From the NCBI RefSeq assembly GCF_016026235.1, contig NZ_CP065613.1: a stretch of 64,000 nucleotides of DNA; one strand, 5' to 3'. Numbering within the stretch: the first letter of the stretch is position 1; each line of letters starts with the position of its first letter. Shown one piece after another: positions 4,587 to 55,212 of the stretch. A program made the position numbers and the translations under genes. The notes below the pieces were generated by a model. The model saw only the letters and a list, made by a program, of their open reading frames with translations, was not told the origin of the DNA and searched no databases. This DNA is from Escherichia coli (GTDB taxonomy: Bacteria > Pseudomonadota > Gammaproteobacteria > Enterobacterales > Enterobacteriaceae).

Positions 4587-5022
4587 GATTCTGGACCCGC
4601 GCGTTGGGAAGGAATTTCCGCTCCCGACTTATGCCACCTCTGGCTCTGCCGGACTTGACCTGCGTGCCTGTCTCGACGACGCCGTAGAACTGGCTCCGGG
4701 TGACACTACGCTGGTTCCGACCGGGCTGGCGATTCATATTGCCGATCCTTCACTGGCGGCAATGATGCTGCCGCGCTCCGGATTGGGACATAAGCACGGT
4801 ATCGTGCTTGGTAACCTGGTAGGATTGATCGATTCTGACTATCAGGGCCAGTTGATGATTTCCGTGTGGAACCGTGGTCAGGACAGCTTCACCATTCAAC
4901 CTGGCGAACGCATCGCCCAGATGATTTTTGTTCCGGTAGTACAGGCTGAATTTAATCTGGTGGAAGATTTCGACGCCACCGACCGCGGTGAAGGCGGCTT
5001 TGGTCACTCTGGTCGTCAGTAA
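4564..5022 (+). CDS. dut: dUTP diphosphatase
   Basis: [35 protein letters not shown]...; overlaps the coaBC 3-prime end as in K-12. The start could be the second Met at 4567. Confidence 0.95.
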
Positions 5023-5128
5023 CACATACGCATCCGAATAACGTCATAACATAGCCGCAAACATTTCGTTTGCGGTCATAGCGTGGGTGCCGCCTGGCAA
5101 GTGCTTATTTTCAGGGGTATTTTGTAAC

Positions 5129-5725
5129 ATGGCAGAAAAACAAACTGCGAAAAGGAACCGTCGCGAGGAAATACTTCAGTCTCTGGCGCTGATGCTGGAA
5201 TCCAGCGATGGAAGCCAACGTATCACGACGGCAAAACTGGCCGCCTCTGTCGGCGTTTCCGAAGCGGCACTGTATCGCCACTTCCCCAGTAAGACCCGCA
5301 TGTTCGATAGCCTGATTGAGTTTATCGAAGATAGCCTGATTACTCGCATCAACCTGATTCTGAAAGATGAGAAAGACACCACAGCGCGCCTGCGTCTGAT
5401 TGTGTTGCTGCTTCTCGGTTTTGGTGAGCGTAATCCTGGCCTGACCCGCATCCTCACTGGTCATGCGCTAATGTTTGAACAGGATCGCCTGCAAGGGCGC
5501 ATCAACCAGCTGTTCGAGCGTATTGAAGCGCAGCTGCGCCAGGTATTGCGTGAAAAGAGAATGCGTGAGGGTGAAGGTTACACCACTGATGAAACGCTGC
5601 TGGCAAGCCAGTTGCTGGCATTTTGTGAAGGTATGCTGTCACGCTTTGTCCGCAGCGAGTTTAAATACCGCCCGACGGATGATTTTGACGCCCGCTGGCC
5701 GCTAATTGCCGCGCAGTTGCAGTAA
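5129..5725 (+). CDS. slmA: nucleoid occlusion factor SlmA (TetR family)
   Basis: ATG at 5129 gives 198 aa [52 protein letters not shown]... with a TetR-type HTH. Confidence 0.95.
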
Positions 5726-5739
5726 TTCTCCCCTAAACG

Positions 5740-5772
5740 GTCAGGCAGAAACGTCTGCCTGACGCTTTTCTT
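5740..5772 (+). terminator. slmA rho-independent terminator (hairpin could act bidirectionally toward the convergent RT gene)
   Basis: GTCAGGCAGA-AACG-TCTGCCTGAC perfect 10-bp stem followed by GCTTTTCTT. Confidence 0.5.
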
Positions 5773-6730
5773 ACCCTGCAACCAGCATTCGCTTAACACT
5801 CTCTCTCGCCTGTTGAAAGGCCTCATCCTCAGGGTTGATTTGCAATAACCAGTTTATTCTTCCCTGCAAAGCATAAAGATACGCCGTTGCCTGTGCGTGG
5901 AGATCGCCAGAAGGATCAAGTTCACCACGATGACTAAGATGCGAAATAACGCCATATTTTTGGCACAAGTGTACTTCCTGACGCAGCGCCCGGCGCGCTT
6001 CGCGGGCAAGCTGTGGTTTGTGATTAACAACAATCCCGGTTACTTGCTGGCGCTTACAGGCAGCTATCAGGCAGCTTTTGCGTTGATAGAGGCTCAGGCC
6101 CAGCTCCGCTAACAATCCGCACACTTTATTTTTAACCTGGCGGGCATTGAAGTGACCTGAAAAGGTCATGTCATCGCAGTAGCGGGTGTAGGTAATTCCC
6201 CGAGCCTGACACCATTCCCCTATGCGTTCATCAAAACAGCGCATCACAAGATTGGAAATGGCTGGCGAAGTTGGTGCCCCCTGTGGTAACGCGTCGTTAT
6301 AACAACAAATCCAGGTCAGCATGGTTACCACATTACGTGGCAACTGGACCTGGCGAAACACACGCCAGACCTGTAACCAGCTAATGCTATCGAAAAAGTT
6401 TTCGATATCGAGTTTCAGGATCTGCGGCTGTTGGCAGTGTGGCTGCGCGTTGCTGACGATTGGGCAACCTGGTCGGTAGGCTGTAGCAAAAGGGGAAAGC
6501 GGAAATTGTGAAAGGACGTTCTTAAGAATGTTGCGCTGTACGGTTTTGAGCAAGTAATCAGGGGCTAACACCAGCCGCTGACCACCGTGGCGTTTAGAAA
6601 GAATAATGCGTCGGTAATGGCGTCCGGCATGATTACTGAGCGCATACAACCGCTGTATTTCTTTATCGGCGCTCCAGCCCGGCGAGCCGAACAAATCGAG
6701 CGCCAGAAGGGTTATCCGGGTAGCATCCAT
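5771..6730 (-). CDS. retron-type reverse transcriptase, consistent with retron Ec107
   Basis: RT motifs in the translation: LKLDIENFFDSI, LPQGAPTSPAISN, YTRYCDDMTFSG (YxDD box) and the retron-typical VTG motif (QQVTGIVVN). The internal ATG at 6730 gives 319 aa; the listed ORF begins at an upstream GTG. Lies between slmA and pyrE, where retron Ec107 is reported (recalled, not searched). Confidence 0.9.
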   Translation of the reverse strand: MDATRITLLALDLFGSPGWSADKEIQRLYALSNHAGRHYRRIILSKRHGGQRLVLAPDYLLKTVQRNILKNVLSQFPLSPFATAYRPGCPIVSNAQPHCQQPQILKLDIENFFDSISWLQVWRVFRQVQLPRNVVTMLTWICCYNDALPQGAPTSPAISNLVMRCFDERIGEWCQARGITYTRYCDDMTFSGHFNARQVKNKVCGLLAELGLSLYQRKSCLIAACKRQQVTGIVVNHKPQLAREARRALRQEVHLCQKYGVISHLSHRGELDPSGDLHAQATAYLYALQGRINWLLQINPEDEAFQQARESVKRMLVAG

Positions 6731-6763
6731 TCCACTCTCCACATCACGGCGGCCAAAAGAGGT

Positions 6764-6954
6764 GCCAACAGCGGCAATACCATTAAACCATCCCGAAGGC
6801 GCGTAACTGTACTGAGCGCGTCAGCGCGACGTACGCGAAGCGTACTTAAGTACAATGAAGCGACTTTGGGTATATGGACATACTACTGGCGTTAAGTCGG
6901 CGACTCGCCGACCCTCCCGGCACAAAGGCCGGAAACGCTATTGCCACTGCTGGC
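6764..6954 (-). ncRNA. retron msr-msd non-coding RNA (template for msDNA), bounded by a1/a2 inverted repeats; boundaries approximate
   Basis: Minus-strand a1 GCCAGCAGUGGCAAUA (plus 6939-6954) pairs over 16 nt (including 2 G-U wobbles) with a2 UAUUGCCGCUGUUGGC (plus 6764-6779), which sits 34 nt upstream of the RT ATG. Between them are msr hairpins (GUCGGCGA-G-UCGCCGAC) and a palindrome-dense msd stem (GUACUUAAGUAC, GCGC-UGAC-GCGC). Confidence 0.55.
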
Positions 6955-7025
6955 GAAAGCAGATTAACACGATATCTTAAAGCGCATCACGCTGCGCACA
7001 GTAAAAACTTGCGCAGCGCATATTT

Positions 7026-7667
7026 TTAAACGCCGAACTCTTCGCGATAGGCCTTAACCGCCGCCAGATGTTCCGCCATTTCCGGCTTCTCTTCCAGGTA
7101 GGCAATCAGATCTTTCAGGGTGATGATAGAGATCACTTTGCAGTTGTAATCACGCTCAACTTCCTGAATCGCCGAAATCTCGCCGCGCCCGCGTTCCTGA
7201 CGATCAAGCGAAATCAATACGCCAGCAAGCGTCGCGCCATTGGCCTGAATAATTTCCATCGACTCGCGAATCGCCGTTCCGGCGGTGATCACATCATCCA
7301 CCAGCATTACGCGTCCTTGTAACGCGCTACCGACCAGATTGCCGCCTTCACCGTGGTCTTTTGCCTCTTTGCGGTTAAAGCAGTACGGCAGGTCCAGGTC
7401 ATGATGCTCCGCCAGCGCCACGGCGGTTGTGGTAGCAATCGGGATCCCTTTGTAAGCAGGGCCAAACAGCAGATCGAACTCAATGCCGGAATCCACCAAT
7501 GCTTCAGCGTAAAAACGGCCTAACAGTGCCAGATCGCGCCCGGTATTAAACAGCCCGGCGTTGAAGAAATAGGGGCTTTTGCGCCCGGATTTCAGCGTAA
7601 ACTCACCAAACTTTAATACCTGTTTGCTAAGCGCAAATTCAATAAACTGGCGCTGATATGGTTTCAT
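7026..7667 (-). CDS. pyrE: orotate phosphoribosyltransferase
   Basis: ATG at 7667 gives 213 aa [40 protein letters not shown]... with the PRPP-binding motif [13 protein letters not shown]. Confidence 0.95.
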
Positions 7668-7698
7668 GCCTTCGCTCCTCATCTTACTTTTCTACAGA

Positions 7699-7728
7699 CA
7701 AAAAAAAGGCGACTCATCAGTCGCCTTA
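7699..7728 (-). terminator. pyrE attenuator (intrinsic terminator in the rph-pyrE intercistronic leader)
   Basis: Minus-strand hairpin AAGGCGACUGAUGAGUCGCCUU followed by a U9 run, directly after the rph stop and upstream of pyrE. Confidence 0.6.
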
Positions 7729-7732
7729 AAAA

Positions 7733-8449
7733 TCAGTTTGCCAGCGCCGCCTTCTGCGTCGCTACAATGGATTCGATTCCCCCTCGGGCCAGCGCCAACA
7801 AGGTGAGTAACTCTTCATGGGTGAACGGCTCGCCTTCTGCCGTCCCCTGCACTTCAATGATGCGCCCGTCTTCGGTCATCACTACGTTCATGTCGGTCTC
7901 TGCGGCTGAGTCTTCAACGTATTCCAGATCGCAAACCGCTTCGCCGTTCACAATCCCGACAGAAACCGCGGCTACCATCCCTTTCATTGGATTGGTTTTC
8001 AGCTTGCCGTTTTCCACCAGCTTCTGTAGCGCATCTGCCAGCGCCACACAGGCACCCGTAATCGAAGCGGTACGCGTGCCACCATCAGCCTGAAGCACGT
8101 CGCAGTCCAGCGTAATGGTGAACTCACCCAGCGCTTTCAAATCTACTGCCGCACGAAGAGCACGGGCGATCAGACGCTGGATTTCCATTGTGCGTCCACC
8201 CTGCTTACCTTTCGCTGCTTCACGAGCGTTACGGGTGTGGGTAGAACGTGGCAGCATGCCGTATTCTGCGGTGATCCAGCCCTGGCCCTGACCTTTCAGG
8301 AAGCGAGGCACGCCTTCTTCAATAGAGGCGGTACACAATACTTTGGTATCGCCAAATTCGACCAGCACCGAGCCTTCTGCATGTTTTGTATAGTTACGAG
8401 TCAGGGTAACGGGACGCACCTGATTATTGCTACGGCCTGCTGGACGCAT
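7733..8449 (-). CDS. rph: ribonuclease PH, intact full-length reading frame
   Basis: ATG at 8449 gives 238 aa [41 protein letters not shown]..., read through to the natural C-terminus without the K-12 rph-1 frameshift. Confidence 0.95.
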
Positions 8450-9615: not shown

Positions 9616-9660
9616 TTACAGATTTACTTTCTTTGCAATCGATATCACATGGAGTGGGCA

Positions 9661-10484
9661 ATGAACGAACATCATCAACCTTTTGAAGAGATACGGCATT
9701 ATGGCACTGAAGGGCAAGAATTTTGGTCAGCGAGAGAATTGGCACCGTTACTGGATTATCGGGACTGGTGCAATTTTCAAAAGGTACTGACCCGCGCGAC
9801 TCAAGCGTGCGAAGCCAGCAATCAAGCTGCATCTGACCATTTCGTTGAAACCACCAAAATGGTTGTATTAGGTTCAGGGCTCAACGAGAACTTGAAGATG
9901 TTCATCTCTCCCGCTATGCCTGTTACCTGGTAGTACAAAACGGCGACCCTGCGAAACCGGTTATTGCGGCAGGACAAACTTATTTTGCTATCCAGACCCG
10001 ACGGCAGGAGCTGGCTGACGATGAAGCTTTCAGGCAACTTCGTGAAGACGAAAAGCGTCTTTTTCTGAGAAATGAATTGAAAGAACATAACAAACAATTA
10101 GTTGAGGCAGCGCAGCAAGCTAGGGTAGCGACAGCTATCGATTTCGCCATATTTCAGAATCATGGTTACCGGGGGCTGTATGGTGGATTAGATCAGAAAG
10201 CCATCCATCAGCGGAAGGGGCTGAAAAAGAGTCAGAAGATCCTGGATCATATGGGTTCAACAGAACTGGCGGCTAATCTCTTTCGAGCTACCCAAACAGA
10301 AGAAAAACTTAAGCGGGATGGCGTGAATTCAAAACAGCAAGCTAACACCACACACTTTGACGTAGGTCGCAAGGTGAGGCAAACCATTCAGGAACTTGGC
10401 GGAACCATGCCTGAGGAGTTGCCGACCCCGCAGGTCAGCATTAAGCAGTTGGAAAACAGTGTAAAAATTACAGAGAAAAAATAG
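9661..10484 (+). pseudogene. dinD: DNA damage-inducible protein DinD, disrupted by a 1-bp deletion frameshift
   Basis: ORFs 9649..9933 and 10077..10484 are the same protein in two frames. Frame 0 resumes ...[21 protein letters not shown]... right after a GGG run at 9877-9879, which is one G short of the GGGG remembered in the intact K-12 gene. Total span is 824 nt against 825 expected. Confidence 0.75.
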
Positions 10485-10775
10485 CAGAAACTAAAAACTC
10501 TTTTTGTTGATTGAGACACCCGATGCGTAAGCCAAAGTCCAGGTGCGGTGAATACAATAGCTAAACATTGCACCTTTCTTTTCCACCCCTCAGTTTTAAC
10601 CTATTTTTTCTTATGCATTTTCTCAGACAAGAAGTCAGAAGAATGCATCTCCGCTACAGAAAATAGAGATTTCACATAACTACAAGTTATCAATTCCCCC
10701 TCACCTTAAAAAATCTCAATCGTGACAATGCGCACAAATCGCTACCCTGCCAGACAGATTTTTAGGGAGAGAACC

Positions 10776-13118
<2,343 letters not shown>

Positions 13119-13119
13119 G

Positions 13120-13164
<45 letters not shown>

Positions 13165-13205
13165 GAATCGTCTTTATTGCAGTAAATCACAGGCAAATGC
13201 GGAAA

Positions 13206-13953
<748 letters not shown>

Positions 13954-14007
13954 ACCTGATTTCAGTATCATGCCCAGTCATTTCTTCACCTGTGGAGCTT
14001 TTTAAGT

Positions 14008-14283
14008 ATGGCACGCGTAACTGTTCAGGACGCTGTAGAGAAAATTGGTAACCGTTTTGACCTGGTACTGGTCGCCGCGCGTCGCGCTCGTCAGATGCAG
14101 GTAGGCGGAAAGGATCCGCTGGTACCGGAAGAAAACGATAAAACCACTGTAATCGCGCTGCGCGAAATCGAAGAAGGTCTGATCAACAACCAGATCCTCG
14201 ACGTTCGCGAACGCCAGGAACAGCAAGAGCAGGAAGCCGCTGAATTACAAGCCGTTACCGCTATTGCTGAAGGTCGTCGTTAA
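14008..14283 (+). CDS. rpoZ: RNA polymerase omega subunit
   Basis: 91 aa [39 protein letters not shown]... Confidence 0.95.
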
Positions 14284-14301
14284 TCACAAAGCGGGTCGCC
14301 C

Positions 14302-16410
14302 TTGTATCTGTTTGAAAGCCTGAATCAACTGATTCAAACCTACCTGCCGGAAGACCAAATCAAGCGTCTGCGGCAGGCGTATCTCGTTGCACGTGATGCT
14401 CACGAGGGGCAAACACGTTCAAGCGGTGAACCCTATATCACGCACCCGGTAGCGGTTGCCTGCATTCTGGCCGAGATGAAACTCGACTATGAAACGCTAA
14501 TGGCGGCGCTGCTGCATGACGTGATTGAAGATACACCCGCCACCTACCAGGACATGGAACAGCTTTTTGGTAAAAGCGTCGCCGAGCTGGTAGAGGGGGT
14601 GTCGAAACTTGATAAGCTCAAGTTCCGCGATAAGAAAGAGGCGCAGGCCGAAAACTTTCGCAAGATGATTATGGCGATGGTGCAGGATATCCGCGTCATT
14701 CTCATCAAACTTGCCGACCGTACCCACAACATGCGCACGCTGGGCTCACTTCGCCCGGACAAACGTCGCCGCATCGCCCGTGAAACTCTCGAAATTTATA
14801 GCCCGCTGGCGCACCGTTTAGGTATCCACCACATTAAAACCGAACTCGAAGAGCTGGGTTTTGAGGCGCTGTATCCCAATCGTTACCGCGTAATTAAAGA
14901 AGTGGTGAAAGCCGCGCGCGGCAACCGTAAAGAGATGATCCAAAAAATCCTCTCTGAAATCGAAGGGCGTTTGCAGGAAGCGGGAATACCGTGCCGCGTC
15001 AGTGGTCGCGAGAAGCATCTTTATTCGATTTACTGCAAAATGGTGCTCAAAGAGCAGCGTTTTCACTCGATCATGGACATCTACGCTTTCCGCGTGATCG
15101 TCAATGATTCCGACACCTGTTATCGCGTGCTCGGCCAGATGCATAGCCTGTATAAGCCGCGTCCGGGTCGCGTGAAAGACTACATCGCTATTCCAAAAGC
15201 GAACGGCTATCAGTCGTTGCACACCTCGATGATTGGCCCGCACGGCGTGCCGGTTGAGGTCCAAATCCGTACCGAAGATATGGATCAGATGGCGGAGATG
15301 GGTGTTGCCGCGCACTGGGCTTATAAAGAGCACGGCGAAACCAGCACGACTGCACAAATCCGCGCCCAGCGCTGGATGCAAAGCCTGCTGGAGCTGCAAC
15401 AAAGCGCCGGTAGCTCGTTTGAATTTATCGAGAGCGTTAAATCCGATCTCTTCCCGGATGAGATTTACGTTTTCACACCGGAAGGGCGCATTGTCGAACT
15501 GCCTGCCGGTGCAACGCCCGTCGACTTCGCTTATGCAGTGCATACCGATATCGGTCATGCCTGCGTGGGCGCACGCGTCGACCGCCAGCCTTACCCGCTG
15601 TCGCAGCCGCTTACTAGCGGTCAAACCGTTGAAATCATTACCGCACCGGGCGCTCGCCCGAATGCCGCTTGGCTGAACTTTGTCGTTAGCTCGAAAGCGC
15701 GCGCCAAAATTCGTCAGTTGCTGAAAAACCTCAAGCGTGATGATTCTGTAAGCCTGGGCCGTCGTCTGCTCAACCATGCTTTGGGTGGTAGCCGTAAGCT
15801 GAATGAAATCCCGCAGGAAAATATTCAGCGCGAGCTGGATCGTATGAAGCTGGCAACGCTTGACGATCTGCTGGCAGAAATCGGACTTGGTAACGCAATG
15901 AGCGTGGTGGTCGCGAAAAATCTGCAACATGGGGACGCCTCCATTCCACCGGCAACCCAAAGTCACGGACATCTGCCCATTAAAGGTGCCGATGGCGTGC
16001 TGATCACCTTTGCGAAATGCTGCCGCCCTATTCCTGGCGACCCGATTATCGCCCACGTCAGCCCCGGTAAAGGTCTGGTGATCCACCATGAATCCTGCCG
16101 TAACATCCGTGGCTACCAGAAAGAGCCAGAGAAGTTTATGGCTGTGGAATGGGATAAAGAGACGGCGCAGGAGTTCATCACCGAAATCAAGGTGGAGATG
16201 TTCAATCATCAGGGCGCGCTGGCAAACCTGACGGCGGCAATTAACACCACGACTTCGAATATTCAAAGTTTGAATACGGAAGAGAAAGATGGTCGCGTCT
16301 ACAGCGCCTTTATTCGTCTGACCGCTCGTGACCGTGTGCATCTGGCGAATATCATGCGCAAAATCCGCGTGATGCCAGACGTGATTAAAGTCACCCGAAA
16401 CCGAAATTAA
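14302..16410 (+). CDS. spoT: bifunctional (p)ppGpp synthetase/hydrolase SpoT
   Basis: 702 aa starting at a TTG codon (MYLFESLNQLIQTYLPEDQIKRL...), with HD hydrolase, synthetase, TGS and ACT regions. Confidence 0.95.
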   Translation: MYLFESLNQLIQTYLPEDQIKRLRQAYLVARDAHEGQTRSSGEPYITHPVAVACILAEMKLDYETLMAALLHDVIEDTPATYQDMEQLFGKSVAELVEGVSKLDKLKFRDKKEAQAENFRKMIMAMVQDIRVILIKLADRTHNMRTLGSLRPDKRRRIARETLEIYSPLAHRLGIHHIKTELEELGFEALYPNRYRVIKEVVKAARGNRKEMIQKILSEIEGRLQEAGIPCRVSGREKHLYSIYCKMVLKEQRFHSIMDIYAFRVIVNDSDTCYRVLGQMHSLYKPRPGRVKDYIAIPKANGYQSLHTSMIGPHGVPVEVQIRTEDMDQMAEMGVAAHWAYKEHGETSTTAQIRAQRWMQSLLELQQSAGSSFEFIESVKSDLFPDEIYVFTPEGRIVELPAGATPVDFAYAVHTDIGHACVGARVDRQPYPLSQPLTSGQTVEIITAPGARPNAAWLNFVVSSKARAKIRQLLKNLKRDDSVSLGRRLLNHALGGSRKLNEIPQENIQRELDRMKLATLDDLLAEIGLGNAMSVVVAKNLQHGDASIPPATQSHGHLPIKGADGVLITFAKCCRPIPGDPIIAHVSPGKGLVIHHESCRNIRGYQKEPEKFMAVEWDKETAQEFITEIKVEMFNHQGALANLTAAINTTTSNIQSLNTEEKDGRVYSAFIRLTARDRVHLANIMRKIRVMPDVIKVTRNRN

Positions 16411-16416
16411 TGTTTT

Positions 16417-17106
16417 ATGAACCCAACACGTTATGCACGCATCTGCGAAATGCTCGCCAGGCGGCAGCCTGATCTGACCGTCTGCATGGAGCAGGTCCAC
16501 AAACCTCATAACGTTTCTGCGATTATTCGTACCGCAGATGCCGTTGGCGTACATGAAGTTCACGCCGTCTGGCCTGGTAGCCGCATGCGTACCATGGCCT
16601 CTGCGGCGGCGGGTAGCAACAGTTGGGTGCAGGTGAAAACGCACCGCACCATTGGCGATGCCGTCGCTCATCTCAAAGGCCAGGGCATGCAAATTCTGGC
16701 AACCCATCTTTCTGATAACGCTGTCGATTTTCGCGAAATTGATTACACTCGCCCGACCTGCATTTTGATGGGTCAGGAGAAAACGGGCACCACTGAGGAA
16801 GCGTTGGCCCTGGCGGATCGGGACATCATCATTCCGATGATTGGCATGGTGCAATCGCTGAATGTTTCCGTTGCCTCAGCCCTCATTCTTTACGAAGCCC
16901 AGCGCCAGCGGCAAAATGCGGGCATGTACCTGCGTGAAAACAGCATGTTGCCGGAAGCAGAGCAACAACGCCTGTTGTTTGAAGGCGGCTATCCGGTGCT
17001 GGCGAAAGTCGCAAAACGCAAAGGCCTGCCTTACCCCCACGTCAATCAGCAAGGCGAGATCGAAGCTGATGCCGACTGGTGGGCTACTATGCAGGCTGCA
17101 GGGTAA
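16417..17106 (+). CDS. trmH: tRNA (guanosine18-2-prime-O)-methyltransferase
   Basis: 229 aa MNPTRYARICEMLARRQPDLTVCMEQVHKPHNVSAIIRTADAVG..., SpoU family. Confidence 0.95.
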   Translation: MNPTRYARICEMLARRQPDLTVCMEQVHKPHNVSAIIRTADAVGVHEVHAVWPGSRMRTMASAAAGSNSWVQVKTHRTIGDAVAHLKGQGMQILATHLSDNAVDFREIDYTRPTCILMGQEKTGTTEEALALADRDIIIPMIGMVQSLNVSVASALILYEAQRQRQNAGMYLRENSMLPEAEQQRLLFEGGYPVLAKVAKRKGLPYPHVNQQGEIEADADWWATMQAAG

Positions 17107-17111
17107 GTGCC

Positions 17112-19193
17112 ATGAAAGGTCGCCTGTTAGATGCTGTCCCGCTCAGTTCCCTAACGGGCGTTGGCGCAGCGCTTAGTAACAAGCTGGCGAAAATCAACCT
17201 GCAGACTGTGCAGGATCTACTCTTACACCTTCCCCTGCGCTACGAAGATCGCACCCATCTCTACCCCATCGGAGAACTACTACCGGGCGTTTATGCCACG
17301 GTGGAAGGCGAAGTGCTGAATTGCAATATCACCTTCGGCGGCCGCCGGATGATGACCTGCCAGATCAGCGACGGTTCCGGCATTCTCACCATGCGCTTTT
17401 TCAACTTCAACGCGGCAATGAAAAATAGCCTGGCGACGGGCCGCCGTGTGCTGGCCTATGGAGAAGCAAAGCGCGGTAAATATGGTGCGGAGATGATCCA
17501 CCCGGAATACCGCGTGCAGGGCGATCTCAGTACGCCAGAGTTGCAGGAAACGCTCACGCCGGTTTATCCAACAACCGAAGGCGTAAAGCAGGCCACGCTG
17601 CGTAAATTAACCGACCAGGCGCTGGATCTGCTCGACACCTGCGCCATTGAAGAACTCCTGCCGCCGGAACTGTCACAAGGAATGATGACGCTACCGGAAG
17701 CGTTGCGCACTTTGCACCGCCCGCCGCCGACGCTGCAACTTAGCGATCTGGAAACCGGGCAGCATCCGGCGCAACGTCGTCTGATTCTGGAAGAACTGCT
17801 GGCGCATAACCTCAGCATGTTAGCCTTACGCGCCGGAGCGCAACGTTTCCATGCCCAGCCGCTGAGCGCCAATGACACGCTGAAAAATAAACTTCTTGCC
17901 GCCTTACCGTTCAAGCCAACGGGCGCTCAGGCTCGCGTGGTGGCGGAGATCGAGCGCGATATGGCGCTGGATGTGCCGATGATGCGCCTGGTACAGGGCG
18001 ATGTAGGTTCCGGTAAAACGCTGGTCGCTGCCCTCGCCGCGCTGCGTGCGATTGCCCACGGCAAACAGGTGGCATTGATGGCACCAACCGAATTACTCGC
18101 CGAACAGCACGCCAATAACTTCCGTAACTGGTTTGCACCGCTCGGTATCGAAGTGGGCTGGCTCGCCGGTAAGCAGAAAGGTAAAGCGCGGCTGGCACAG
18201 CAGGAAGCCATCGCCAGCGGTCAGGTGCAGATGATTGTCGGAACACACGCCATCTTCCAGGAACAGGTGCAGTTTAACGGCCTGGCGCTGGTGATTATCG
18301 ACGAACAGCATCGCTTTGGCGTGCATCAGCGTCTGGCATTGTGGGAGAAAGGCCAGCAGCAAGGCTTCCATCCGCATCAGTTGATCATGACCGCCACGCC
18401 GATCCCCCGCACGCTGGCGATGACTGCGTATGCCGATCTCGACACCTCGGTCATTGATGAACTGCCGCCAAGCCGCACGCCAGTGACTACGGTCGCTATT
18501 CCTGATACTCGCCGTACCGACATCATTGACCGCGTGCGCCACGCCTGCATAACTGAAGGTCGTCAGGCGTACTGGGTTTGTACGTTGATTGAAGAGTCAG
18601 AGTTACTGGAAGCGCAGGCGGCGGAAGCTACCTGGGAAGAGTTGAAACTGGCGCTACCAGAATTGAATGTTGGCCTGGTACACGGGCGGATGAAACCAGC
18701 CGAGAAACAGGCGGTGATGGCGTCGTTTAAACAAGGTGAGCTACATCTGCTGGTTGCCACTACCGTTATTGAAGTCGGTGTTGATGTGCCTAACGCCAGC
18801 CTGATGATTATCGAAAACCCTGAGCGTCTGGGTCTGGCGCAGTTACACCAGCTGCGCGGGCGCGTAGGTCGTGGCGCGGTGGCTTCTCACTGCGTGCTGC
18901 TCTACAAAACGCCGCTTTCTAAAACGGCGCAAATTCGCCTGCAAGTGCTGCGCGACAGTAACGACGGTTTTGTGATTGCGCAAAAAGATCTGGAGATTCG
19001 CGGCCCTGGCGAATTGTTAGGCACGCGTCAGACGGGTAATGCTGAATTTAAAGTGGCGGATTTACTGCGCGATCAGGCGATGATCCCGGAAGTTCAGCGC
19101 CTGGCGCGACATATTCACGAACGTTACCCACAACAGGCAAAAGCCTTGATAGAACGCTGGATGCCGGAGACGGAACGTTACTCCAACGCATGA
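17112..19193 (+). CDS. recG: ATP-dependent DNA helicase RecG
   Basis: ATG at 17112 gives 693 aa MKGRLLDAVPLSSLTGVGAALSNKLAKINLQTVQDLL... with Walker A GDVGSGKT and the DEQH box. Confidence 0.95.
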   Translation: MKGRLLDAVPLSSLTGVGAALSNKLAKINLQTVQDLLLHLPLRYEDRTHLYPIGELLPGVYATVEGEVLNCNITFGGRRMMTCQISDGSGILTMRFFNFNAAMKNSLATGRRVLAYGEAKRGKYGAEMIHPEYRVQGDLSTPELQETLTPVYPTTEGVKQATLRKLTDQALDLLDTCAIEELLPPELSQGMMTLPEALRTLHRPPPTLQLSDLETGQHPAQRRLILEELLAHNLSMLALRAGAQRFHAQPLSANDTLKNKLLAALPFKPTGAQARVVAEIERDMALDVPMMRLVQGDVGSGKTLVAALAALRAIAHGKQVALMAPTELLAEQHANNFRNWFAPLGIEVGWLAGKQKGKARLAQQEAIASGQVQMIVGTHAIFQEQVQFNGLALVIIDEQHRFGVHQRLALWEKGQQQGFHPHQLIMTATPIPRTLAMTAYADLDTSVIDELPPSRTPVTTVAIPDTRRTDIIDRVRHACITEGRQAYWVCTLIEESELLEAQAAEATWEELKLALPELNVGLVHGRMKPAEKQAVMASFKQGELHLLVATTVIEVGVDVPNASLMIIENPERLGLAQLHQLRGRVGRGAVASHCVLLYKTPLSKTAQIRLQVLRDSNDGFVIAQKDLEIRGPGELLGTRQTGNAEFKVADLLRDQAMIPEVQRLARHIHERYPQQAKALIERWMPETERYSNA

Positions 19194-26437: not shown

Positions 26438-27298
26438 TTAGTACAGTGATGCTTTACCGAGCGAACCGAACAGTTTCATTTTGTGGCGAATGACTTCCCG
26501 CGCCGCGTTAATCGCATCCGGATAGATGACGTTCGGGTCCCACCAGCTCTCTTTAGCGAGAATTTCACGCACTTTCTGGAAATAGGCGTATTTCATATCG
26601 CTGGAGATATTGATTTTGCCGACGCCGAGCGTAACTGATTCAGCAATCTCCGCGTCCGGGTTTGCCGAACCACCGTGTAGTACCAGCGGAATATCAATAC
26701 GTCCGGCAATGTCGCGCAAAATGTTCATTTGCAGCTTCGGTTGCATCCCTTTTGGATAGATGCCATGCGCTGTACCAATCGCCACAGCCAGTGTGTCGGC
26801 ACCTGTACGAGCAATAAAATCGGCGGCCTGCGCCGGATCTGTGTAGGTCACTTGTGAAACACCACCTTCTACCGACGTTCCTGTTTGTCCGATGGTTCCC
26901 AGTTCACCTTCAACCGACACGCCAACCGCGTGAGCGAGGCGAACCACTTCTGCGGTCAGCGCCACGTTTTCTTCATACGGCAGCAGCGAACCGTCGATCA
27001 TTACTGAGGTAAATCCGCAGCGAATCGCACGCAAAACATGCTCTACAGAGGCACCATGATCGAGGTGCAGTACAAACGGGACTGGACTACGCTGGGTAAT
27101 TTCGCGAACGTGAGCGAAAAAGGCATCGCCCACAAAATCATGTTCGCTGGGATGGATGGCAATAATCGCCGGAGTATTTGTCGCTTCTGCTTCATCCACG
27201 ACTGCGCGAAGGAAACAGTTATCCGCCACATTAAATGCGCCAATGGCAAAGCCGTGCTGGCGGGTAGGTTGCAGTAATTCTTTCATCGAAACTAACAT
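26438..27298 (-). CDS. class II ketose-bisphosphate aldolase (GatY/KbaY/FbaA family), copy 1
   Basis: 286 aa with LHLDHGAS metal-binding motif and ...AIGTAHG.. / LVLHGGS motifs. Confidence 0.85.
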   Translation of the reverse strand: MLVSMKELLQPTRQHGFAIGAFNVADNCFLRAVVDEAEATNTPAIIAIHPSEHDFVGDAFFAHVREITQRSPVPFVLHLDHGASVEHVLRAIRCGFTSVMIDGSLLPYEENVALTAEVVRLAHAVGVSVEGELGTIGQTGTSVEGGVSQVTYTDPAQAADFIARTGADTLAVAIGTAHGIYPKGMQPKLQMNILRDIAGRIDIPLVLHGGSANPDAEIAESVTLGVGKINISSDMKYAYFQKVREILAKESWWDPNVIYPDAINAAREVIRHKMKLFGSLGKASLY

Positions 27299-27378
27299 GT
27301 TAAATCTCCAGTTTCAGCGTGTAGTCCGCCCTGCCGGTGCGTTATTGCACTGGCATAAAGGCCATGACAGAAAATGAA

Positions 27379-28230
27379 TCAGGCTTTGCCGATAGAGCCG
27401 CTCGCCTGTAAATACGGTGTAATCGCTTCTTCGAAGGCCAGTTCCATAGCTTTCAGCGCGTCCACCAGTTCAATGGATATATCGTGACAGAGGGTATGCA
27501 GGAGCGCGGATTTCCCCCGTTCAAAAATGGCCGCCCCCACGTTGATTTTTGCTACCCCCAGCGTCGTACAGAGCTGGAGCTGATCGAACGGCGTACCGCT
27601 ACCGCCATGTAATGCCAGAGGCACGCTCGAGCAGTGGAAAATCTCCGCCAGACGCTGAAAATCAATAGCAGGTACAACACCAGGCGCGTACATGCCGTGC
27701 GCCGTACCCACAGAGACAGCCAGTAGATCAATGCCTGTCTGCGCGATAAACGGTTCCACATCAGTGGGTTGCGTCATCATGTCTGCATTGGCGGCCTGGT
27801 CGTAACGCGGCGCATCTGCCAGATGGCCCAGTTCGCCTTCCACGCAGAGCTGCGCGCTGGCGGCGAGTTCCACCACCGCCCTGGTCTGGCGCACGTTTTC
27901 CTCCAGGGGAAAAGCAGAAGCATCAATCATTAATCCGCTGAAACCAGCACGAAACGCCTGACGAATACAGTCCGGATTTTTGCCATGATCAAGCGCCAGA
28001 GTGACCGGTACTGAAGCAGATTCCGCGAGCGTTTTAACCACTGCCGCCGCGACGGGTGCAGGAAAATGCGCCAGATGCCCCTGATATAGATTGAGAATGA
28101 TCGGAGCGCGATTCTTCTCCGCCACGCGGATAGCTGCGTAAGCACTTTCCAGATTCATACAGTTGATCGCCAGCAAGGCGTAATGTTCATGCCAGGCTTT
28201 CATCACCATACTTTTCATATCGGCAAACAT
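27379..28230 (-). CDS. class II ketose-bisphosphate aldolase, copy 2 (divergent paralog)
   Basis: 283 aa with LALDHGKN, SVGTAHG and LALHGGSG motifs; GGAGG Shine-Dalgarno upstream. Confidence 0.85.
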   Translation of the reverse strand: MFADMKSMVMKAWHEHYALLAINCMNLESAYAAIRVAEKNRAPIILNLYQGHLAHFPAPVAAAVVKTLAESASVPVTLALDHGKNPDCIRQAFRAGFSGLMIDASAFPLEENVRQTRAVVELAASAQLCVEGELGHLADAPRYDQAANADMMTQPTDVEPFIAQTGIDLLAVSVGTAHGMYAPGVVPAIDFQRLAEIFHCSSVPLALHGGSGTPFDQLQLCTTLGVAKINVGAAIFERGKSALLHTLCHDISIELVDALKAMELAFEEAITPYLQASGSIGKA

Positions 28231-40365: not shown

Positions 40366-41556
40366 TCAGGATTTCTTCATTTTCACCTTTGCAGTAACCA
40401 ACAATGCAGTCAGCAACATCAATGTGCCGGACAACATCAACGGCGAAGTCAGACCAATATTATCCAGCGCATAACCGCCGATTGCCGCACCACAGGTATT
40501 AGCAAGCTGAATAACCGCCACCTGAATAGACCCGGCTTTTTCTGCCTGATCGGCCAGCGAGCGGGTGATCCACGTTGACCAGCCGACGGGAACCAATGCA
40601 AAAGTTAGCCCCCAGATAATCGCCACGCCGGTAGCAACGATTTTATCGCTTCCCCACAACGTCAGTACCAACGCACTCACAGCCAGTATTAACGGCGCGC
40701 CTGCTAAGGCCAGTTTTACCGAACGTTTAAGAATGAACGACGAAAGCGACGTACCAATAAAGCTGGCGATACCAAAACTCAACAGCACCAGCGTTAAGCC
40801 ATCCACGCCGAATCCCGCCAGGTTCATATACACCGGGCGAATATACGTGAAGAAAGCAAACTGCCCGGCGAAAGACATGAAGATGGCGATCATCCCTGCC
40901 ATCACACCCGGACGTTGTAATAAGCGGAAAGTATTTTGTTTCTGATGCGAGGGTTCGCCTGGCAGCGAAGGCAATGATTTGATAATCCAGAAAATACACA
41001 ACACGCCCATCACCGCCGCCGCATTAAAGACATTGCGCCAACCGATAAGCTCGCCTAAAAAACTGCCCAACGGCGCGGCAATCACCAGCGCAATAGAAAC
41101 CGCGCCGAAGATCACCGACAGCGCCTTCGGCACCGTACGCGGCGGTACCAGACGCATGGTCAGCGACGCCGACATCGCCCAGAACCCGCCCAGCGCCAGC
41201 CCCAGACAGGCACGACCGATTAAAAGCAAACTGAATGAGTTAGCAAAGGAAACCAGCAAACAGGAGAGCGTCAGCAAAACGGCAAATAAAATAACAACGT
41301 AGCGGCGGTCAGTAGCCTGAATTGTCTGGGTAATAAACAAACTGGCAAACATTGCCACAAAGGCGGTCACGGTCACCGATTGCCCGGCAACCCCTTCCGA
41401 AATGCCTAAATCCTGGGCCATTGGCGTCAACAAACTGACGGGCAAAAACTCAACGATAATCAGACAGGCGACGCAAAACGCCACCGAGAAAACGGCTGAC
41501 CAGTTCGGTCGGGTGATGGCATCCGCGCCGCGGTTTTCGGCAATAAATTCACTCAT
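40366..41556 (-). CDS. nepI: purine ribonucleoside efflux pump NepI (MFS)
   Basis: 396 aa from [40 protein letters not shown]...; the listed ORF extends upstream to an earlier start. Confidence 0.9.
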
Positions 41557-41783
41557 GGTGTTACCCGTGGCATGTTTCAGGGGAAAAGCCGACCACTTTA
41601 ACATTGAAATGTGTGACGCATTTAACGTTTTTGCAACTTTTACGGTGTTGTGGGAAAAGTTCGAGGCTGCTCGAAGAAACAAAAATCATAGGGCAAGCTG
41701 ATATGCATTTTCGCGATTGGGTTGGGAATAAGGGATAAAGTATTGCACTTGGTGATATACTTTAATAACAGGACCTCAACGAT

Positions 41784-42143
41784 ATGCGCGTGTTTAAAAC
41801 CAAATGGTTTGCAAGGGAAGCCAGGTCTCATGCAATAACAGATGAAGAGTTGTGCCGGGCCATTTTAGAAACGGAGCAAGGTAAAGCTGATGCACTTGGT
41901 GGTGGCGTTTTTAAAAAGCGCCTTCACCAAAATCGTGAGCGTGCAATTATTCTGGCAAAAGGGGGAAGCAATTGGTTTTACACGTTTTTATATGCAAAAC
42001 AGGATATGTCGAACATCAATAGTCAGGAACTGGCTGGGTTTCGTGAACTTGCAAAGCATTATGCCTTCCTGACGAAAGCCCAGCTAACAGCAATGATTAA
42101 CACTAAAGAACTGACAGAGATCTGCTATGACTGCAAAAACTAA
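41784..42143 (+). CDS. HigB-like toxin (RelE/ParE superfamily) of a type II toxin-antitoxin pair
   Basis: 119 aa; the motif ...LGGGVFKKRLHQNRERAIILAKGGSNWFYTFLYAKQDMSNINSQEL... parallels the HigB pattern GxGGLRKxRxxxxGKGKRGGxRxIYYF...KNEMSDL (recalled). Toxin-first order with a 17-bp overlap onto the following HTH gene. Confidence 0.7.
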   Translation: MRVFKTKWFAREARSHAITDEELCRAILETEQGKADALGGGVFKKRLHQNRERAIILAKGGSNWFYTFLYAKQDMSNINSQELAGFRELAKHYAFLTKAQLTAMINTKELTEICYDCKN

Positions 42144-42450
42144 ATTTAAAAGTCCTGCATTTGAGGCTATTCACAGCGCAGCGGCTGGATTGTCCAGCGT
42201 CGATGCTATTTCTGCCGAAACAATGCGTACTTTTGACAAAGCCTGCCTGACCAGCGTGCAAGACTTACAACCTGTTGAGATAAAAGCACTGCGGGAAAAA
42301 TTAAAAGTGAGTCAGCCCGTCTTCGCTCACTATCTCAATACCAGCGTTTCAACTGTACAAAAATGGGAAAGTGGCGCTAAACGCCCCAATGGCATTTCAT
42401 TAAAACTGCTCAGCATTGTGCAAAAACACGGGCTGGATGTGCTGCTGTAA
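42127..42450 (+). CDS. HigA-like antitoxin (XRE-family helix-turn-helix)
   Basis: 107 aa; ...LKVSQPVFAHYLNTSVSTVQKWESGAKRPNGISLKLLSIVQKHG... matches the HigA-type HTH (VSQPVFA...STVQSWEQG...LRLLQIV, recalled). Confidence 0.7.
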   Translation: MTAKTKFKSPAFEAIHSAAAGLSSVDAISAETMRTFDKACLTSVQDLQPVEIKALREKLKVSQPVFAHYLNTSVSTVQKWESGAKRPNGISLKLLSIVQKHGLDVLL

Positions 42451-42475
42451 ATAGAACGTAGATAATGCGTCACCT

Positions 42476-42560
42476 ACTGTCAGTTCCGATACCGGATGCG
42501 GCGTGAACGTCTTATCCACCCACCAGCTCAGGCGCGGTCTGTAGGCTGATAAGACGAAGC
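42476..42560. repeat. REP-like (repetitive extragenic palindromic) element(s)
   Basis: CCGGATGCGGCGTGAACGTCTTATCC ... GTAGGCTGATAAGACGAAGCGG resembles the REP consensus GCCGGATGCGGCGTAAACGCCTTATCCGGCCTAC. Confidence 0.4.
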
Positions 42561-42564
42561 GGTT

Positions 42565-43017
42565 TTAATGCAGCCAGTGAACGCCCTCGGCAGGCTGAAA
42601 GAATGCGTTATAGCGCATCTGAAAAGCATTAATATCCTGCATTTCAGGTTCAGTTTCGCGCAGAAAACCCAGCGCCAGCCTGACCTGAGCATCGGTAATC
42701 GGCGCGGCAAGGCGGGCTTTTTGTAAAATCCGATGCCATTGCAGCAGGTTCTGTTCGCTACCATCGACAATGACAATTTGCCAGATGAGCAACACCTGCG
42801 CGGCGTTTTGCAGGTGCGACTCATCCGGACGATGCAAATAACGTAAAAATTCGTCACCAGCTGACTTTCCCATTTGATCGACCATCGACTCCACGGGTAC
42901 GACATCGATATTCAGCCGATCGCTGAGACGGCGAATCGCTTTTCTGGCCCCGGATGTCAGCACCCGAAAACCAACCACAAACACTACCGCCAGCGTGGCG
43001 AGCATTATCCAGATCAT
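42565..43017 (-). CDS. yicN: DUF1198-family protein YicN
   Basis: 150 aa from MIWIMLATLAVVFVVGFRVLTSGARKAIRRLSD...; the listed ORF has an upstream extension. Confidence 0.85.
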   Translation of the reverse strand: MIWIMLATLAVVFVVGFRVLTSGARKAIRRLSDRLNIDVVPVESMVDQMGKSAGDEFLRYLHRPDESHLQNAAQVLLIWQIVIVDGSEQNLLQWHRILQKARLAAPITDAQVRLALGFLRETEPEMQDINAFQMRYNAFFQPAEGVHWLH

Positions 43018-44301
43018 GAGTTCTCCTGCGTAATCAAAACTCATGATATCTGGAAACCCTCGCCAGTTACTAATCCACCAGAATAATCTTGAGTGCAAAC
43101 AGAGCTGCGACCACCACCACACACAGGTTCAGATCGCGCCAGCGCCCGGTGCACACTTTCATGATGCAGTACGACATAAAGCCGAGTGCAATCCCTTCGG
43201 TGATCGAGAAAGTAAAGGGCATCATCACCGTGGTAATAAACGCAGGCACCGATTCGGTAAAATCATCCCAGTTAACGCGCGCCAGGCTCGAAGTCATCAG
43301 CACGCCAACAAAGATTAACGCTCCAGCGGTTGCGTAAGGAGGAACCATCGCCACCAGCGGTGAGAAGAACATAACCAACAGGAACATAACGCCAACCACA
43401 ACCGCAGTCAGCCCCGTGCGGCCACCCACTGCCACGCCAGAAGTACTTTCAATATAGGCGGTAACAGACGAGGTGCCGATAAACGCACCCGCCACCGAAC
43501 TCACGCTATCAACATACAGCGCCTTATTCATATTGGGGAATTTACCGTTACTATCTATTAAGCCAGCTTTATCAGTCACACCAATTAATGTTCCTGATGA
43601 ATCAAATAGGTTGATCAGCATAAAGGAGAAAATGATACCGGCGAGTTCAAGTGTTAACGCGCCGCTCAAATCCACTTCACCAATGACGCCGCTAATATCA
43701 GGCGGAATGGAATAGACACCGCTAAAATGAACATCACCGAAAAATAATCCACAGCAAGACGTCACCACAATAGAAACCAGCACCGCGGCATGAAAATGAC
43801 GTGATGACAACACGGTTATAATAAAAAACCCTAAAATACCTAACAACACGCCGTGAGAACTTAAATCGCCAATCATCACCAGAGTGTCTTTATTGGCGAC
43901 AATAACGCCAGTATTTTTTAATCCCATTAAGGCGATAAATAATCCAATTCCGCTGGTGATACCAATACGTAAACTTAATGGAATGTTGGAGATCATCCAG
44001 TACCGGATACGAAACAGCGTGAGCAAAAATAGTCCAATTGCACCCCAGAATATTGCGCCCATCCCGGTCTGCCATGAGATCCCCATCGCCCCCACGACCA
44101 CGAAGGCAAAGAAGGCGTTCAGCCCCATTGCCGGAGCCAGCGCCACAGGTAAGTTAGCAAATATCCCCATCGCAATGCTGCCGATACCGGCAATCAAACA
44201 GGTGGTAACAAACACCACTTTCGGGTCCATTTGTGCCGCGCCGAGAATTTGCGGGTTCACAAAAACGATGTACACCATGGTTAAAAAAGTGGTCATCCCC
44301 T

Positions 44302-45589
44302 GAGGGATCCCCAGAAAATTTAGTAAACCATTATCATATTGGTATACCGTTGCTGTAGAACTTTCAGCCCTGCGTCAAGTGACAGTGTGTTTAGTATGAG
44401 TGGAGAATGTCGAATCACATTCTCCGCCAGTTTTAATAACGAGATGACTCGCCTGTGCTTCACTGTATTTGCCTGATATTTATGATGTATCCCTTTGTTT
44501 TCCAGGCTGAAACCGCTTAACCACATAATGATACTGGCTAATGTTGCGATCAGACTCAATACCGTGACCCGCCCGGATGAATGACTGGCACCAAACCGTA
44601 GTCCAAATCCCCAGCGAGGATTTTTTCATCCCTGAAATTTTGCTCAATTTGCATTCTACGGCTGTATAATTTCATTACCTGTTTTGGCGAGAACTCAGTA
44701 CTGTTTGTGAAAATAAACCATGGTGATTTCCCGGCAGTACGAGCTTTAGCCGTCACCGATGGTCTGGTTGCTCTTTCCTTCGAGCGTTTAAATCTACGAC
44801 CTTTAGACTTACTTTTATAAAGATAAAAATGCCCTTCATGTTGTGCATTTTTATCTCGACCCAGCAGGCCTTCATCTAAATAAATTGCTGTCGTTGATGC
44901 TTTTGTGCCTGAGTCCGACACCTTTTCCCAGCCATTACCAACATTGTAATAATGATTGCCCAGTACCCGGCAAATATAGGTCCAGCCACGGGAGCGGAGC
45001 TGTTGGAACCATCGCCCCTGAAAACCGGCATCTGTAATAACAATGACATCAGTCCCGGGGGAAAAGCACTCAGCAAGCGATTCCAGAAAACGCTCATGTA
45101 CATCTGCATTCGCTGTCTGTGATGATGGAACGACACAACTCATCAACGGTAAAGAACGCCCGTCACATGCCAGGCTTGCCCGCAAAAGCTGAAAACGAGA
45201 GGCATGATAAGCACTCCAGTCAATGAGTATCACAACACGAGACATTCCCCGCGTAATCTTTTGGGTAATTCGCTGAAAAATGGTGGAAACCTCATTTTGC
45301 AAATGTCGATTCCCCAACAGTCGATCCACCCGCTTTATTTTGTTTTTAACTGATGCCGTACCGGTTAAATGACGCCCGATACTGGTAAGTGTGAGGGAAG
45401 CGCCATTTATTACAGCATTAGTTGCGTCAATCAGTGATTTTTGACGGTAAAGATGCAAAGGGGCCAGTATGTTGTTAAGGAAATTTTGGCATAATGAACG
45501 TGCAGGCATAGTGGTGATCTCCTTGAAATTGTTAGCACAATCAATTAGATCACATCTCACTATGCCTGTCTTGTTTTCTGGGGATTCCT
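44302..45589 (-). mobile_element. IS4-family insertion sequence (IS10-like transposase), about 1.29 kb, with imperfect terminal inverted repeats and a 13-bp target site duplication
   Basis: Ends TGAGGGATCCCCAGAAAA (left) and, as reverse complement, GAGGAATCCCCAGAAAA (right); flanked by direct repeats AGTGGTCATCCCC at 44289-44301 and 45590-45602; encodes an IS10-like transposase. Confidence 0.8.
44320..45509 (-). pseudogene. IS4-family (IS10-like) transposase, reading frame broken by a frameshift in an A6 run
   Basis: MPARSLCQNFL...NKIKRVDRLLGNRHL...DAGF...YLYKSKSKGRRF...LYSRRMQIEQNFRDEK parallels IS10 transposase up to plus-strand 44621-44626 (TTTTTT). The homologous continuation ...NPRWGFGLRFGASHSS...HKYQANTVKHRRVISLL... 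is in another frame, ending at 44320. Confidence 0.7.
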
Positions 45590-45881
45590 CAGTGGTCATC
45601 CCCGCAATCAATTCTGTGCGGACGGTGGTCCCATGCTGAGGTAGTTTAAATAATCGCGAAAGCGTCCCTGATTCATTACTCACGTAATCGGTATTGTCAT
45701 TATTCATTTTTTTGTCCATTGGAGGAGATTTAATCCCTTGCTTTTGTAAAACAAATGACAACAACGGTTCAGTGATAATTATCACATTTCAATTGCACAT
45801 TAATGGATATTCTTTAATAATCTCGCGACGTTTCTTTATGATAAATAATAATCAAATTGATAAAATCAAAATGAGAAAAAT

Positions 45882-47648: not shown

Positions 47649-47690
47649 AAAAAGCCCGGCGTCATGCCGGGCAAAAGTCACCAGTTACGT

Positions 47691-49082: not shown

Positions 49083-49219
49083 GGGTTACTCCTGAAATGA
49101 ATACCTGCGTGAGGCATGCATTGTAAAAATCAGCAGCAAATCAGGCCTGAGATAGCGTCCAGGCAAAACCTGGAAAATTTCTTAGTTTTGCCGGATATGA
49201 AGTGAAAAGGTGAGATGCA

Positions 49220-50539: not shown

Positions 50540-50548
50540 CATCGAACC

Positions 50549-52641: not shown

Positions 52642-52715
52642 GGTCTTGTCCTGGCGGGTAAAAAAAAACGCGCTTACCTTAACGATAAGCGCGATGTTGT
52701 TCAAGCCTTGAGCGG

Positions 52716-54698: not shown

Positions 54699-54742
54699 GC
54701 TCCAGTCCTTTTCTTCTGGGCCGACTTTCCGGGAGGTGCTTA

Positions 54743-54780
54743 AACGAAAAACCCCGCCCGGTTTGCGCCGGCGGGGTTTT
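54743..54780 (-). terminator. ilvB attenuator terminator
   Basis: Minus-strand AAAACCCCGCCGGCGCAAACCGGGCGGGGUUUUUCGUUU hairpin plus U-run between the ivbL leader and ilvB. Confidence 0.6.
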
Positions 54781-54803
54781 GGAATCGTGTGTTGTTCCAG
54801 TCC

Positions 54804-54902: not shown

Positions 54903-55028
54903 TGGGGACCTTGTTGGTTTTGTGTTTAACAATATTTATACAAGCACAGCTTTACAGGGGAGACAATGGAAAATTTTTCAGCAAGGGAAAATTGAGGGGT
55001 TGATCACGTTTTGCACTGAATTGCAGGT

Positions 55029-55170: not shown

Positions 55171-55212
55171 CATAGTTGAGTATCGATCACAGTTTGCGTT
55201 TTGTCCAAAAAT

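Follow-up and report, generated by a model that had tools for sequence, protein, structure and literature searches.

A retron that carries no effector gene lies between slmA and pyrE in a 64,000-nucleotide (nt) stretch of Escherichia coli DNA (NCBI RefSeq assembly GCF_016026235.1, contig NZ_CP065613.1), which as a whole is referred to here as the window. What we show here, taken together with what has been published, makes it very likely that this element is retron Ec107 (Retron-Eco5), in which an msr-msd RNA gene and a reverse transcriptase (RT) form a self-contained unit of two parts. Both the element and the puzzle of its missing effector are already known and essentially published (Herzer 1992, Mestre 2020). 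An earlier note, made from the sequence alone, had read the locus as a compact retron without an adjacent effector gene. Our results support that interpretation as right but not new.

The insert encodes a single, full-length retron RT. The slmA stop (5725, plus strand) and the pyrE stop (7026, minus strand) are separated by 1300 bp, which correspond to window positions 5726 to 7025; rph lies further upstream of pyrE, with both of these genes on the minus strand. The sole long open reading frame (ORF) of the insert runs from 6730 to 5771 on the minus strand and encodes 319 amino acids from an ATG, or 323 from a GTG at 6742. It contains the motifs LKLDIENFFDSI, LPQGAPTSPAISN, YCDD, VTG (region Y), and NAQPH (region X), the last of which is invariant, together with YCDD and VTG, in an alignment of 19 RT relatives. 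An identical 319-residue coding sequence is annotated by RefSeq in NZ_CP065615.1 (E. coli FDAARGOS_943), which is a 100% match to the window. The retron-type RT of 319 residues that the earlier note had placed between the two stops, with its named motifs, is therefore present as described. The gene and its Shine-Dalgarno sequence, the core of which is conserved in the enterobacterial alignment, are located as follows.

5771 to 6730, minus strand: RT of retron Ec107 (Eco5), 319 amino acids, assigned from the RT_Ec107-like model, RVT_1, the RefSeq coding sequence, and motifs invariant in the family.
6735 to 6740, minus strand: Shine-Dalgarno sequence GGAGAG, read from the sequence; 6 nt separate its GGAG core from the RT ATG.

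Profile searches place the RT among retrons. Of the PADLOC models, RT_Ec107-like matches best (3.8e-131, full length) and RT_III-A second best (5.8e-93), and the top 25 listed matches are all retron RT models. RVT_1 is the only Pfam domain detected. Non-retron NCBIfam models score far under their cut-offs: group_II_RT_mat reaches 57.5 bits against 300, Drt2 53 against 390, and Drt3a 43.7 against 200. We thus reject a group II intron, diversity-generating retroelement, or abortive infection (Abi-UG) RT identity, and the retron placement that had been drawn from motifs holds. The window RT falls within a 646-member cluster at 90% identity that also includes E. fergusonii and unclassified Escherichia members, and it is 98% identical to the cluster member carrying UniProt Q05804, which we take to be the original Ec107 entry. 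Among solved structures, that of the Ec86 RT (7v9u, E = 5.5e-39) is the closest; a structure search with the window RT found none for Ec107 itself.

The insertion site is that of Ec107. The slmA/pyrE spacer of K-12 is TATGACGCCGGATGACTTTTCATCCGGCGAGTTTCT, a palindrome of only 36 nt, just as had been stated, and the insert replaces it entirely. Comparison with the K-12 site reveals no visible target duplication or terminal repeat at the insert ends. Retron-Eco5 (Ec107) has been described at this pyrE/slmA (ttk) site, with the palindrome replaced, a YCDD motif, and no mobile context (PMC6868368). The score of the RT_Ec107-like model, the 98% identity to the Q05804 member, and the published site and palindrome replacement thus all point to Ec107. 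The match that had previously been suggested from location and RT length agrees with the literature (PMC6868368, PMC7736814). The window element shares with Retron-Ec107/Eco5 its host species, site, palindrome replacement, 319-residue YCDD RT, and lack of both mobile context and effector. It differs from it as an allelic variant: the RT has seven amino-acid differences from the Q05804-type common allele over 318 aligned residues, Y215 among them, and nucleotide identity to other complete E. coli genomes is at most 98.7%.

An msr-msd RNA gene lies directly upstream of the RT, on the same strand. The highly structured non-coding DNA reported here by the earlier note spans 295 nt (6731 to 7025) and does contain an msr-msd closed by the inverted repeats a1 and a2, with covariation in support. 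The non-coding RNA (ncRNA) is approximately 190 nt long and runs from 6954 to 6764 on the minus strand. An Rfam scan of positions 5000 to 8000 at E ≤ 1 matched no family, and the RNA was therefore defined by comparative analysis. We find that the consensus structure of ten enterobacterial elements has 55 pairs, 23 of which show compensatory changes on both sides. Pairing holds in 95.4% of alignment cells, compared with 30-41% once the 3' partners are displaced by 1-3 columns, and none of 500 shuffles reached the observed covariation. Folding of the RNA over 199 nt yields -91.3 kcal/mol (z = -6.09 relative to shuffled sequence). The msd is the template for the multicopy single-stranded DNA (msDNA) of the retron. 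The parts of the RNA gene, from its 5' side, are listed below.

6961 to 6969, minus strand: candidate extended -10 promoter TGtTAATCT, 6-7 nt upstream of a2.
6939 to 6954, minus strand: a2 inverted repeat at the 5' end of the msr, 16 nt, from the comparative structure.
6938, minus strand: putative branching guanosine, the first unpaired G after a2, in TAGC.
6934 to 6915 and 6914 to 6894, minus strand: two msr hairpins (helices 2 and 3), in which 9 of 16 pairs show compensatory changes.
6780 to 6886, minus strand: msd, template of the 107-nt msDNA, with putative boundaries.
6792 to 6870, minus strand: long msd stem with a forked tip of two small hairpins, from the comparative structure; DNA fold z = -3.79.
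6764 to 6779, minus strand: a1 inverted repeat at the 3' end of the ncRNA, pairing with a2 (helix 1, 16 pairs, 8 with compensatory changes).

Known retron architecture makes G6938 the likely priming residue. In the enterobacterial alignment, the TAG immediately after a2 is invariant and the C that follows it nearly so. Within the second msr hairpin, GCGAGTCGC is nearly invariant across phyla, as seen in the conservation line of the alignment. The msd length of 107 nt is taken from the name of the retron and the literature, and its presumed start beside a1 from general retron architecture. Upstream of a2, the pattern TGnTA..T at 6969 to 6961 is probably the retron's own extended -10 promoter, judging from its sequence: it aligns at an equal distance from a2 in all three enterobacterial chromosomal contexts, although a promoter consensus scan did not call it.

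The insert contains no second gene that could serve as an effector. Comparison of ORFs across alleles and relatives found no other conserved ORF inside it, and none with a defence-model match, so the earlier observation that 5771 to 7025 holds no effector ORF stands. The largest extra ORF, an antisense frame of 102 amino acids (6587 to 6895), was rejected as a hidden effector: an 86%-identical allele lacks it, as does every relative that is more distant, and it matches no defence model. The other short ORFs of the insert were rejected as well, being conserved only in near-identical alleles and likewise without a defence-model match. Nor was an effector found linked in cis or fused to the RT, which consists of RVT_1 alone and has slmA and pyrE as its neighbors; the products of these two genes have no defence-model match beyond a weak one of PyrE to ShosT (E = 0.021). 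We also considered a gene read from concatenated cDNA, as in DRT2. When the inferred 107-nt unit is concatenated, each reading frame on either strand is interrupted by stops, and no “neo”-type gene is therefore possible. DRT2 and similar stand-alone defence RTs resemble Ec107 in combining an RT with an ncRNA and no separate effector gene; they differ in belonging to another RT clade, as the Drt2 score given above indicates. Ec86 (Eco1, type II-A) is similar in its priming architecture, with a1/a2 and a branching G after a2. It has, however, a nucleoside deoxyribosyltransferase-like effector beside it and a prophage-like context, neither of which is found with Ec107.

The stand-alone state recurs among enterobacterial relatives at unrelated chromosomal sites. 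Relatives of the RT that occupy the pyrE/slmA site are 72% (an enterobacterium) and 68% (Pseudocitrobacter) identical to it. Elements from Leminorella (59-62% identity) lie between cyaY and cyaA, while a cdaR-like gene and garD flank those from Pragia and Budvicia (53-55%). All are units of approximately 1.2-1.4 kb without an extra gene, and no phosphoribosyltransferase (PRTase) neighbor occurs at the two sites other than pyrE/slmA. All three sites lack an integrase or repeats. At each of them, the gene upstream of the element is co-directional and the gene downstream is convergent, and the RT sometimes overlaps the stop of the latter by 4 nt. Position between convergent genes is not a general rule, however: it holds at these three sites, but in only 14 of the 67 wider loci listed.

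Ec107-type RNAs and stand-alone RTs extend far beyond the enterobacteria. A wider scan of the family, which sampled one genome per species, returned at least 80 loci, mostly from Firmicutes, with RTs of 36-68% identity. No recurrent neighbor was found among the loci listed. When up to three neighbors on each side were clustered, no cluster occurred in more than 7 of 80 loci, and Pfam scans detected no family in more than 3 of 74 (position +1) or 2 of 73 (position -1). The neighbors at these loci are ordinary housekeeping genes, with the exception of the most distant RTs, which have PRTase_III-A and WH_III-A upstream. A covariance model built solely from enterobacterial RNAs has matches upstream of the RT, on its strand, at 44 of the 77 other listed loci, mostly directly adjacent to the RT; it has no match at any III-A1 locus. 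The covariance-model matches conserve, at 70-90%, both the msr loop GCGAGTCGC and the GTAC-flanked msd tip GCACACTTCGTGTGC. This conservation spans Enterobacterales to Lachnospiraceae, Listeria, and other Bacilli, in loci whose RTs are only 36-56% identical to that of the window. The msd sequence of most retrons can vary freely. The conservation of the msd tip probably reflects the action of the msDNA rather than its synthesis. Synthesis alone does not explain it, since part of the Ec107 msd has been replaced by engineering and working msDNA was still obtained (PMC6868368).

The nearest typed relatives of the RT do have effectors. These are type III-A retrons, such as Eco11 (type III-A3, the characterised PRTase retron) and three III-A1 loci from our scan, with approximately 37-39% identity between the window RT and the III-A1 RTs. 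They have the general msr-msd-RT layout in common with the window element, but carry in addition an upstream PRTase-like effector and a winged-helix protein, both of which the window element lacks. All three components are required for defence (PMC12746101). Mestre et al. 2020 assigned Eco5 to RT clade 2, in a stand-alone branch adjacent to the RTs linked to PRTases, and asked whether such retrons once had an effector that has been lost, depend on an unknown one acting in trans, or serve another function (PMC7736814). The three options named in the earlier note (an effector-less element, an effector in trans, or another role) are the same ones that these authors gave for Retron-Eco5.

The locus has exactly two states in E. 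coli. We find the Ec107 element in 381 of 5426 complete genomes (7%), always as a single, full-length, chromosomal copy at pyrE/slmA. A contiguous empty site is present in 5043 genomes, and the two groups together account for all 5424 genomes having the locus. A search with the RNA alone recovers the identical 381 genomes as the RT, and no orphan msr-msd copies or remnants were found in the complete E. coli genomes. The RT is annotated as intact in all 30 carrier genomes sampled. Phage and plasmid records encode no relative above 60% identity (the best being 41.5% and 38%), and we therefore reject carriage of the Ec107 retron by mobile elements.

Between the window allele and other Escherichia alleles, the ratio of nonsynonymous to synonymous divergence (dN/dS) of the RT is 0.13-0.26, at divergences up to dS 0.55. 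The dS of the RT (0.04-0.55) is within about two-fold of that of pyrE and slmA in the same strain pairs, and the GC content of the retron is host-like. Together, these characteristics fit long residence at the site under purifying selection, rather than recent transfer or decay.

We propose that the msDNA-RT complex is itself the working product of this unit, a proposal that would account for the persistence of the stand-alone state at several unrelated sites. The ncRNA would be transcribed, probably from the extended -10 promoter described above. Its a1 and a2 ends would then pair, and the RT would bind the msr hairpins, prime from the 2'-OH of G6938 next to a2, and reverse-transcribe the msd into a single-stranded DNA of 107 nt, which would remain attached to the RNA, while host RNase H would trim the template. 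Transcription, a1/a2 pairing, priming from a branching G, msd copying, and RNase H trimming are established steps for retrons in general and, in the literature, for Ec107 (PMC8989520), and msDNA production has been reported for Ec107, as cited in PMC6868368 and PMC8989520. Finally, the complex might act without a dedicated toxin gene, by way of a conserved partner, of host or phage origin, for which the msd hairpin is the recognition signal. We hold this functional reading tentatively, and would put it at somewhat worse than an even chance. A broader extension is that Ec107-like retrons form a phylum-spanning, toxin-free class, from Enterobacterales to Lachnospiraceae, Listeria, and other Bacilli, in which the abundant msDNA with the GTAC-flanked tip would itself be the active agent, perhaps as a decoy or sensor for a conserved phage or host DNA-binding protein. 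If true, this would represent a second mode of retron action, beside that in which msDNA holds a toxin in check. The extension is speculative, and we consider it unlikely.

Several points weigh against our proposal. Its functional step is purely inferred. The survey of neighbors rests on crude ORF calls and sampled loci, and alignments fitted to a covariance model lean toward that model. In the literature searched, up to mid-2026, we found no functional study of Ec107/Eco5 and no phage-defence or other phenotype for it; Ec107 was omitted from the phage tests of Millman et al. Furthermore, the window RT has Y215 (codon 6086 to 6088) where N (motif GLxLNxxK) is found in at least 90% of the family, the common E. 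coli allele among them.

The element could instead be a tripartite retron in disguise, whose dedicated effector gene lies in another part of the accessory genome and whose effector is restrained by the Ec107 msDNA-RT complex. Most studied retrons require an effector, the nearest typed RT relatives pair with PRTase and winged-helix proteins, and an effector in trans is among the options raised by Mestre et al. Among the accessory ORFs tested in the 64-kb window (a P4-like island, a RelE/ParE pair, and an ORF of 288 amino acids), however, none is a homologue of a retron effector. Most genomes with orphan retrons likewise have no homologues of known retron-associated proteins, and RT and effector normally co-evolve in cis (Mestre et al., PMC7736814). 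The recurrence of the stand-alone state across genera and phyla, at many unrelated sites, means that an effector in trans would need repeated unlinking. We regard this explanation as improbable.

A role in host physiology rather than defence, such as adaptation to starvation or stationary phase with a regulatory msDNA, would also be possible, and could overlap with the toxin-free action that we prefer. Expression of Ec107 is strongly induced by phosphate starvation and in stationary phase, in a manner dependent on guanosine tetraphosphate (ppGpp), according to Herzer 1996 as cited in PMC6868368. A physiological role is also favored by the chromosomal location of the element, its host-like GC content, its absence from phages and plasmids, and a synonymous divergence similar to that of its flanking genes. 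Mestre et al. suggest domestication for clade 2 (PMC7736814). Nevertheless, the literature searched offers no such phenotype, and carriage in 7% of E. coli genomes would be odd for a general physiological role. Earlier “physiological” phenotypes of other retrons were later explained by toxin release, which also counts against it. On balance, a purely physiological role seems doubtful.

It is very unlikely that the element has no present function, being a remnant, decaying or neutral, left by a type III-A-like retron after loss of its effector. Effector loss is plausible according to Mestre et al. (PMC7736814), a minority of genomes carry the element, and the window allele has the unusual N215Y change. 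A remnant would not, however, be expected to show the low dN/dS maintained up to dS 0.55, RNA helices that keep pairing via compensatory changes, an RT that is intact in every sampled genome and never apart from its RNA, or a stand-alone unit kept across phyla.

That the adjoining pyrE, which encodes orotate phosphoribosyltransferase, supplies the effector by analogy with type III-A is highly implausible: pyrE is directly upstream on the same strand, has no strong terminator after it, and adjoins a retron whose sister RT branch uses PRTase-like effectors, but its product (WP_000806177.1) is the same in K-12 and three carriers, it matches no PRTase_III-A model (a true III-A1 neighbor scores 1.1e-92) and nothing beyond the weak ShosT match, relatives at other sites have no PRTase neighbor, the adjacency, noted by Mestre et al., occurs in 2 of 59 RTs of the branch (PMC7736814), and the retron appears to have its own promoter.

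The role of effector-less retrons has been a question in print since 2020, and we found no answer to it in the literature searched up to mid-2026. What we add here is a modest overall gain. It comprises the strict two-state polymorphism in E. coli, the three independent stand-alone sites in enterobacteria, the extension of Ec107-type RNA and the stand-alone state into Firmicutes with an msd hairpin conserved across phyla, and direct evidence against pyrE as the effector. The locus provides a clean model: a 1.3-kb unit with a presence/absence polymorphism, an empty site in the laboratory host K-12, purifying selection on both parts, and a conserved hairpin as a target for mutagenesis. Ec107_like heads the msr/msd models most frequently detected in a 2026 metagenome survey. 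If msDNA acts without a toxin, the picture of retrons as tripartite toxin-antitoxin systems needs widening. It would also be relevant to retron genome editing, where toxin-free, high-copy producers of msDNA are wanted.

Two hairpins lie near the ends of the insert.

5740 to 5763, plus strand: slmA terminator, a hairpin with a T-run, called by the terminator scan as a 10-bp stem followed by GCTTTTCTT.
6990 to 7018, minus strand: GC-rich hairpin (GCGCTGCGCA...TGCGCAGCG) just past the pyrE stop, with 9-nt arms that are 100% complementary.

The slmA terminator is located between the slmA and RT stops. It belongs to the inserted DNA and is missing from the K-12 spacer. The second hairpin is also part of the insert and is kept in the other elements at the pyrE/slmA site. 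It probably replaces the lost pyrE terminator, although the terminator scan found that no T-run follows it.

The accessory regions of the window include an island at approximately 9627 to 17300, between yicC and dinD, that has the appearance of a P4-like satellite. It encodes a tyrosine integrase, a helix-turn-helix (HTH) regulator, an Icd-like protein, a toprim protein, a DUF927 protein (P4-type primase), and small unknown ORFs; two of these, located between dinD and the gene for the DUF927 protein, have no PADLOC match. Strains with the 86%-identical RT allele also have an integrase beside yicC. The hypothetical ORF of 288 amino acids (26876 to 27742, minus strand) is located between gltS and recG, overlaps the 3' end of recG by approximately 16 nt, and has no NCBIfam or PADLOC match. 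A RelE/ParE-family toxin and an HTH antitoxin are encoded at 54669 to 55329, between yicN and nepI. The antitoxin has weak PADLOC matches to RmrA (5.9e-06) and HTH_VI (9.3e-05), which are probably generic HTH matches.

The window strain appears to be rich in insertion sequence (IS) elements and pseudogenes. The region from approximately 41500 to 52700 is heavily degraded: IS66 splits yicI, while IS1 (twice) and IS5 disrupt a major facilitator superfamily transporter gene. A rhuM fragment lies beside tRNA-Sec (46445 to 46539), yicJ has an internal stop, and both dinD (17359 to 18182) and phosphotransferase system genes are frameshifted. When the 3' region of slmA (5129 to 5770) was searched against all complete E. 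coli genomes, it was at most 97.6% identical to any other genome. This low maximal identity, together with that of the retron itself, suggests that the window strain represents a divergent lineage.

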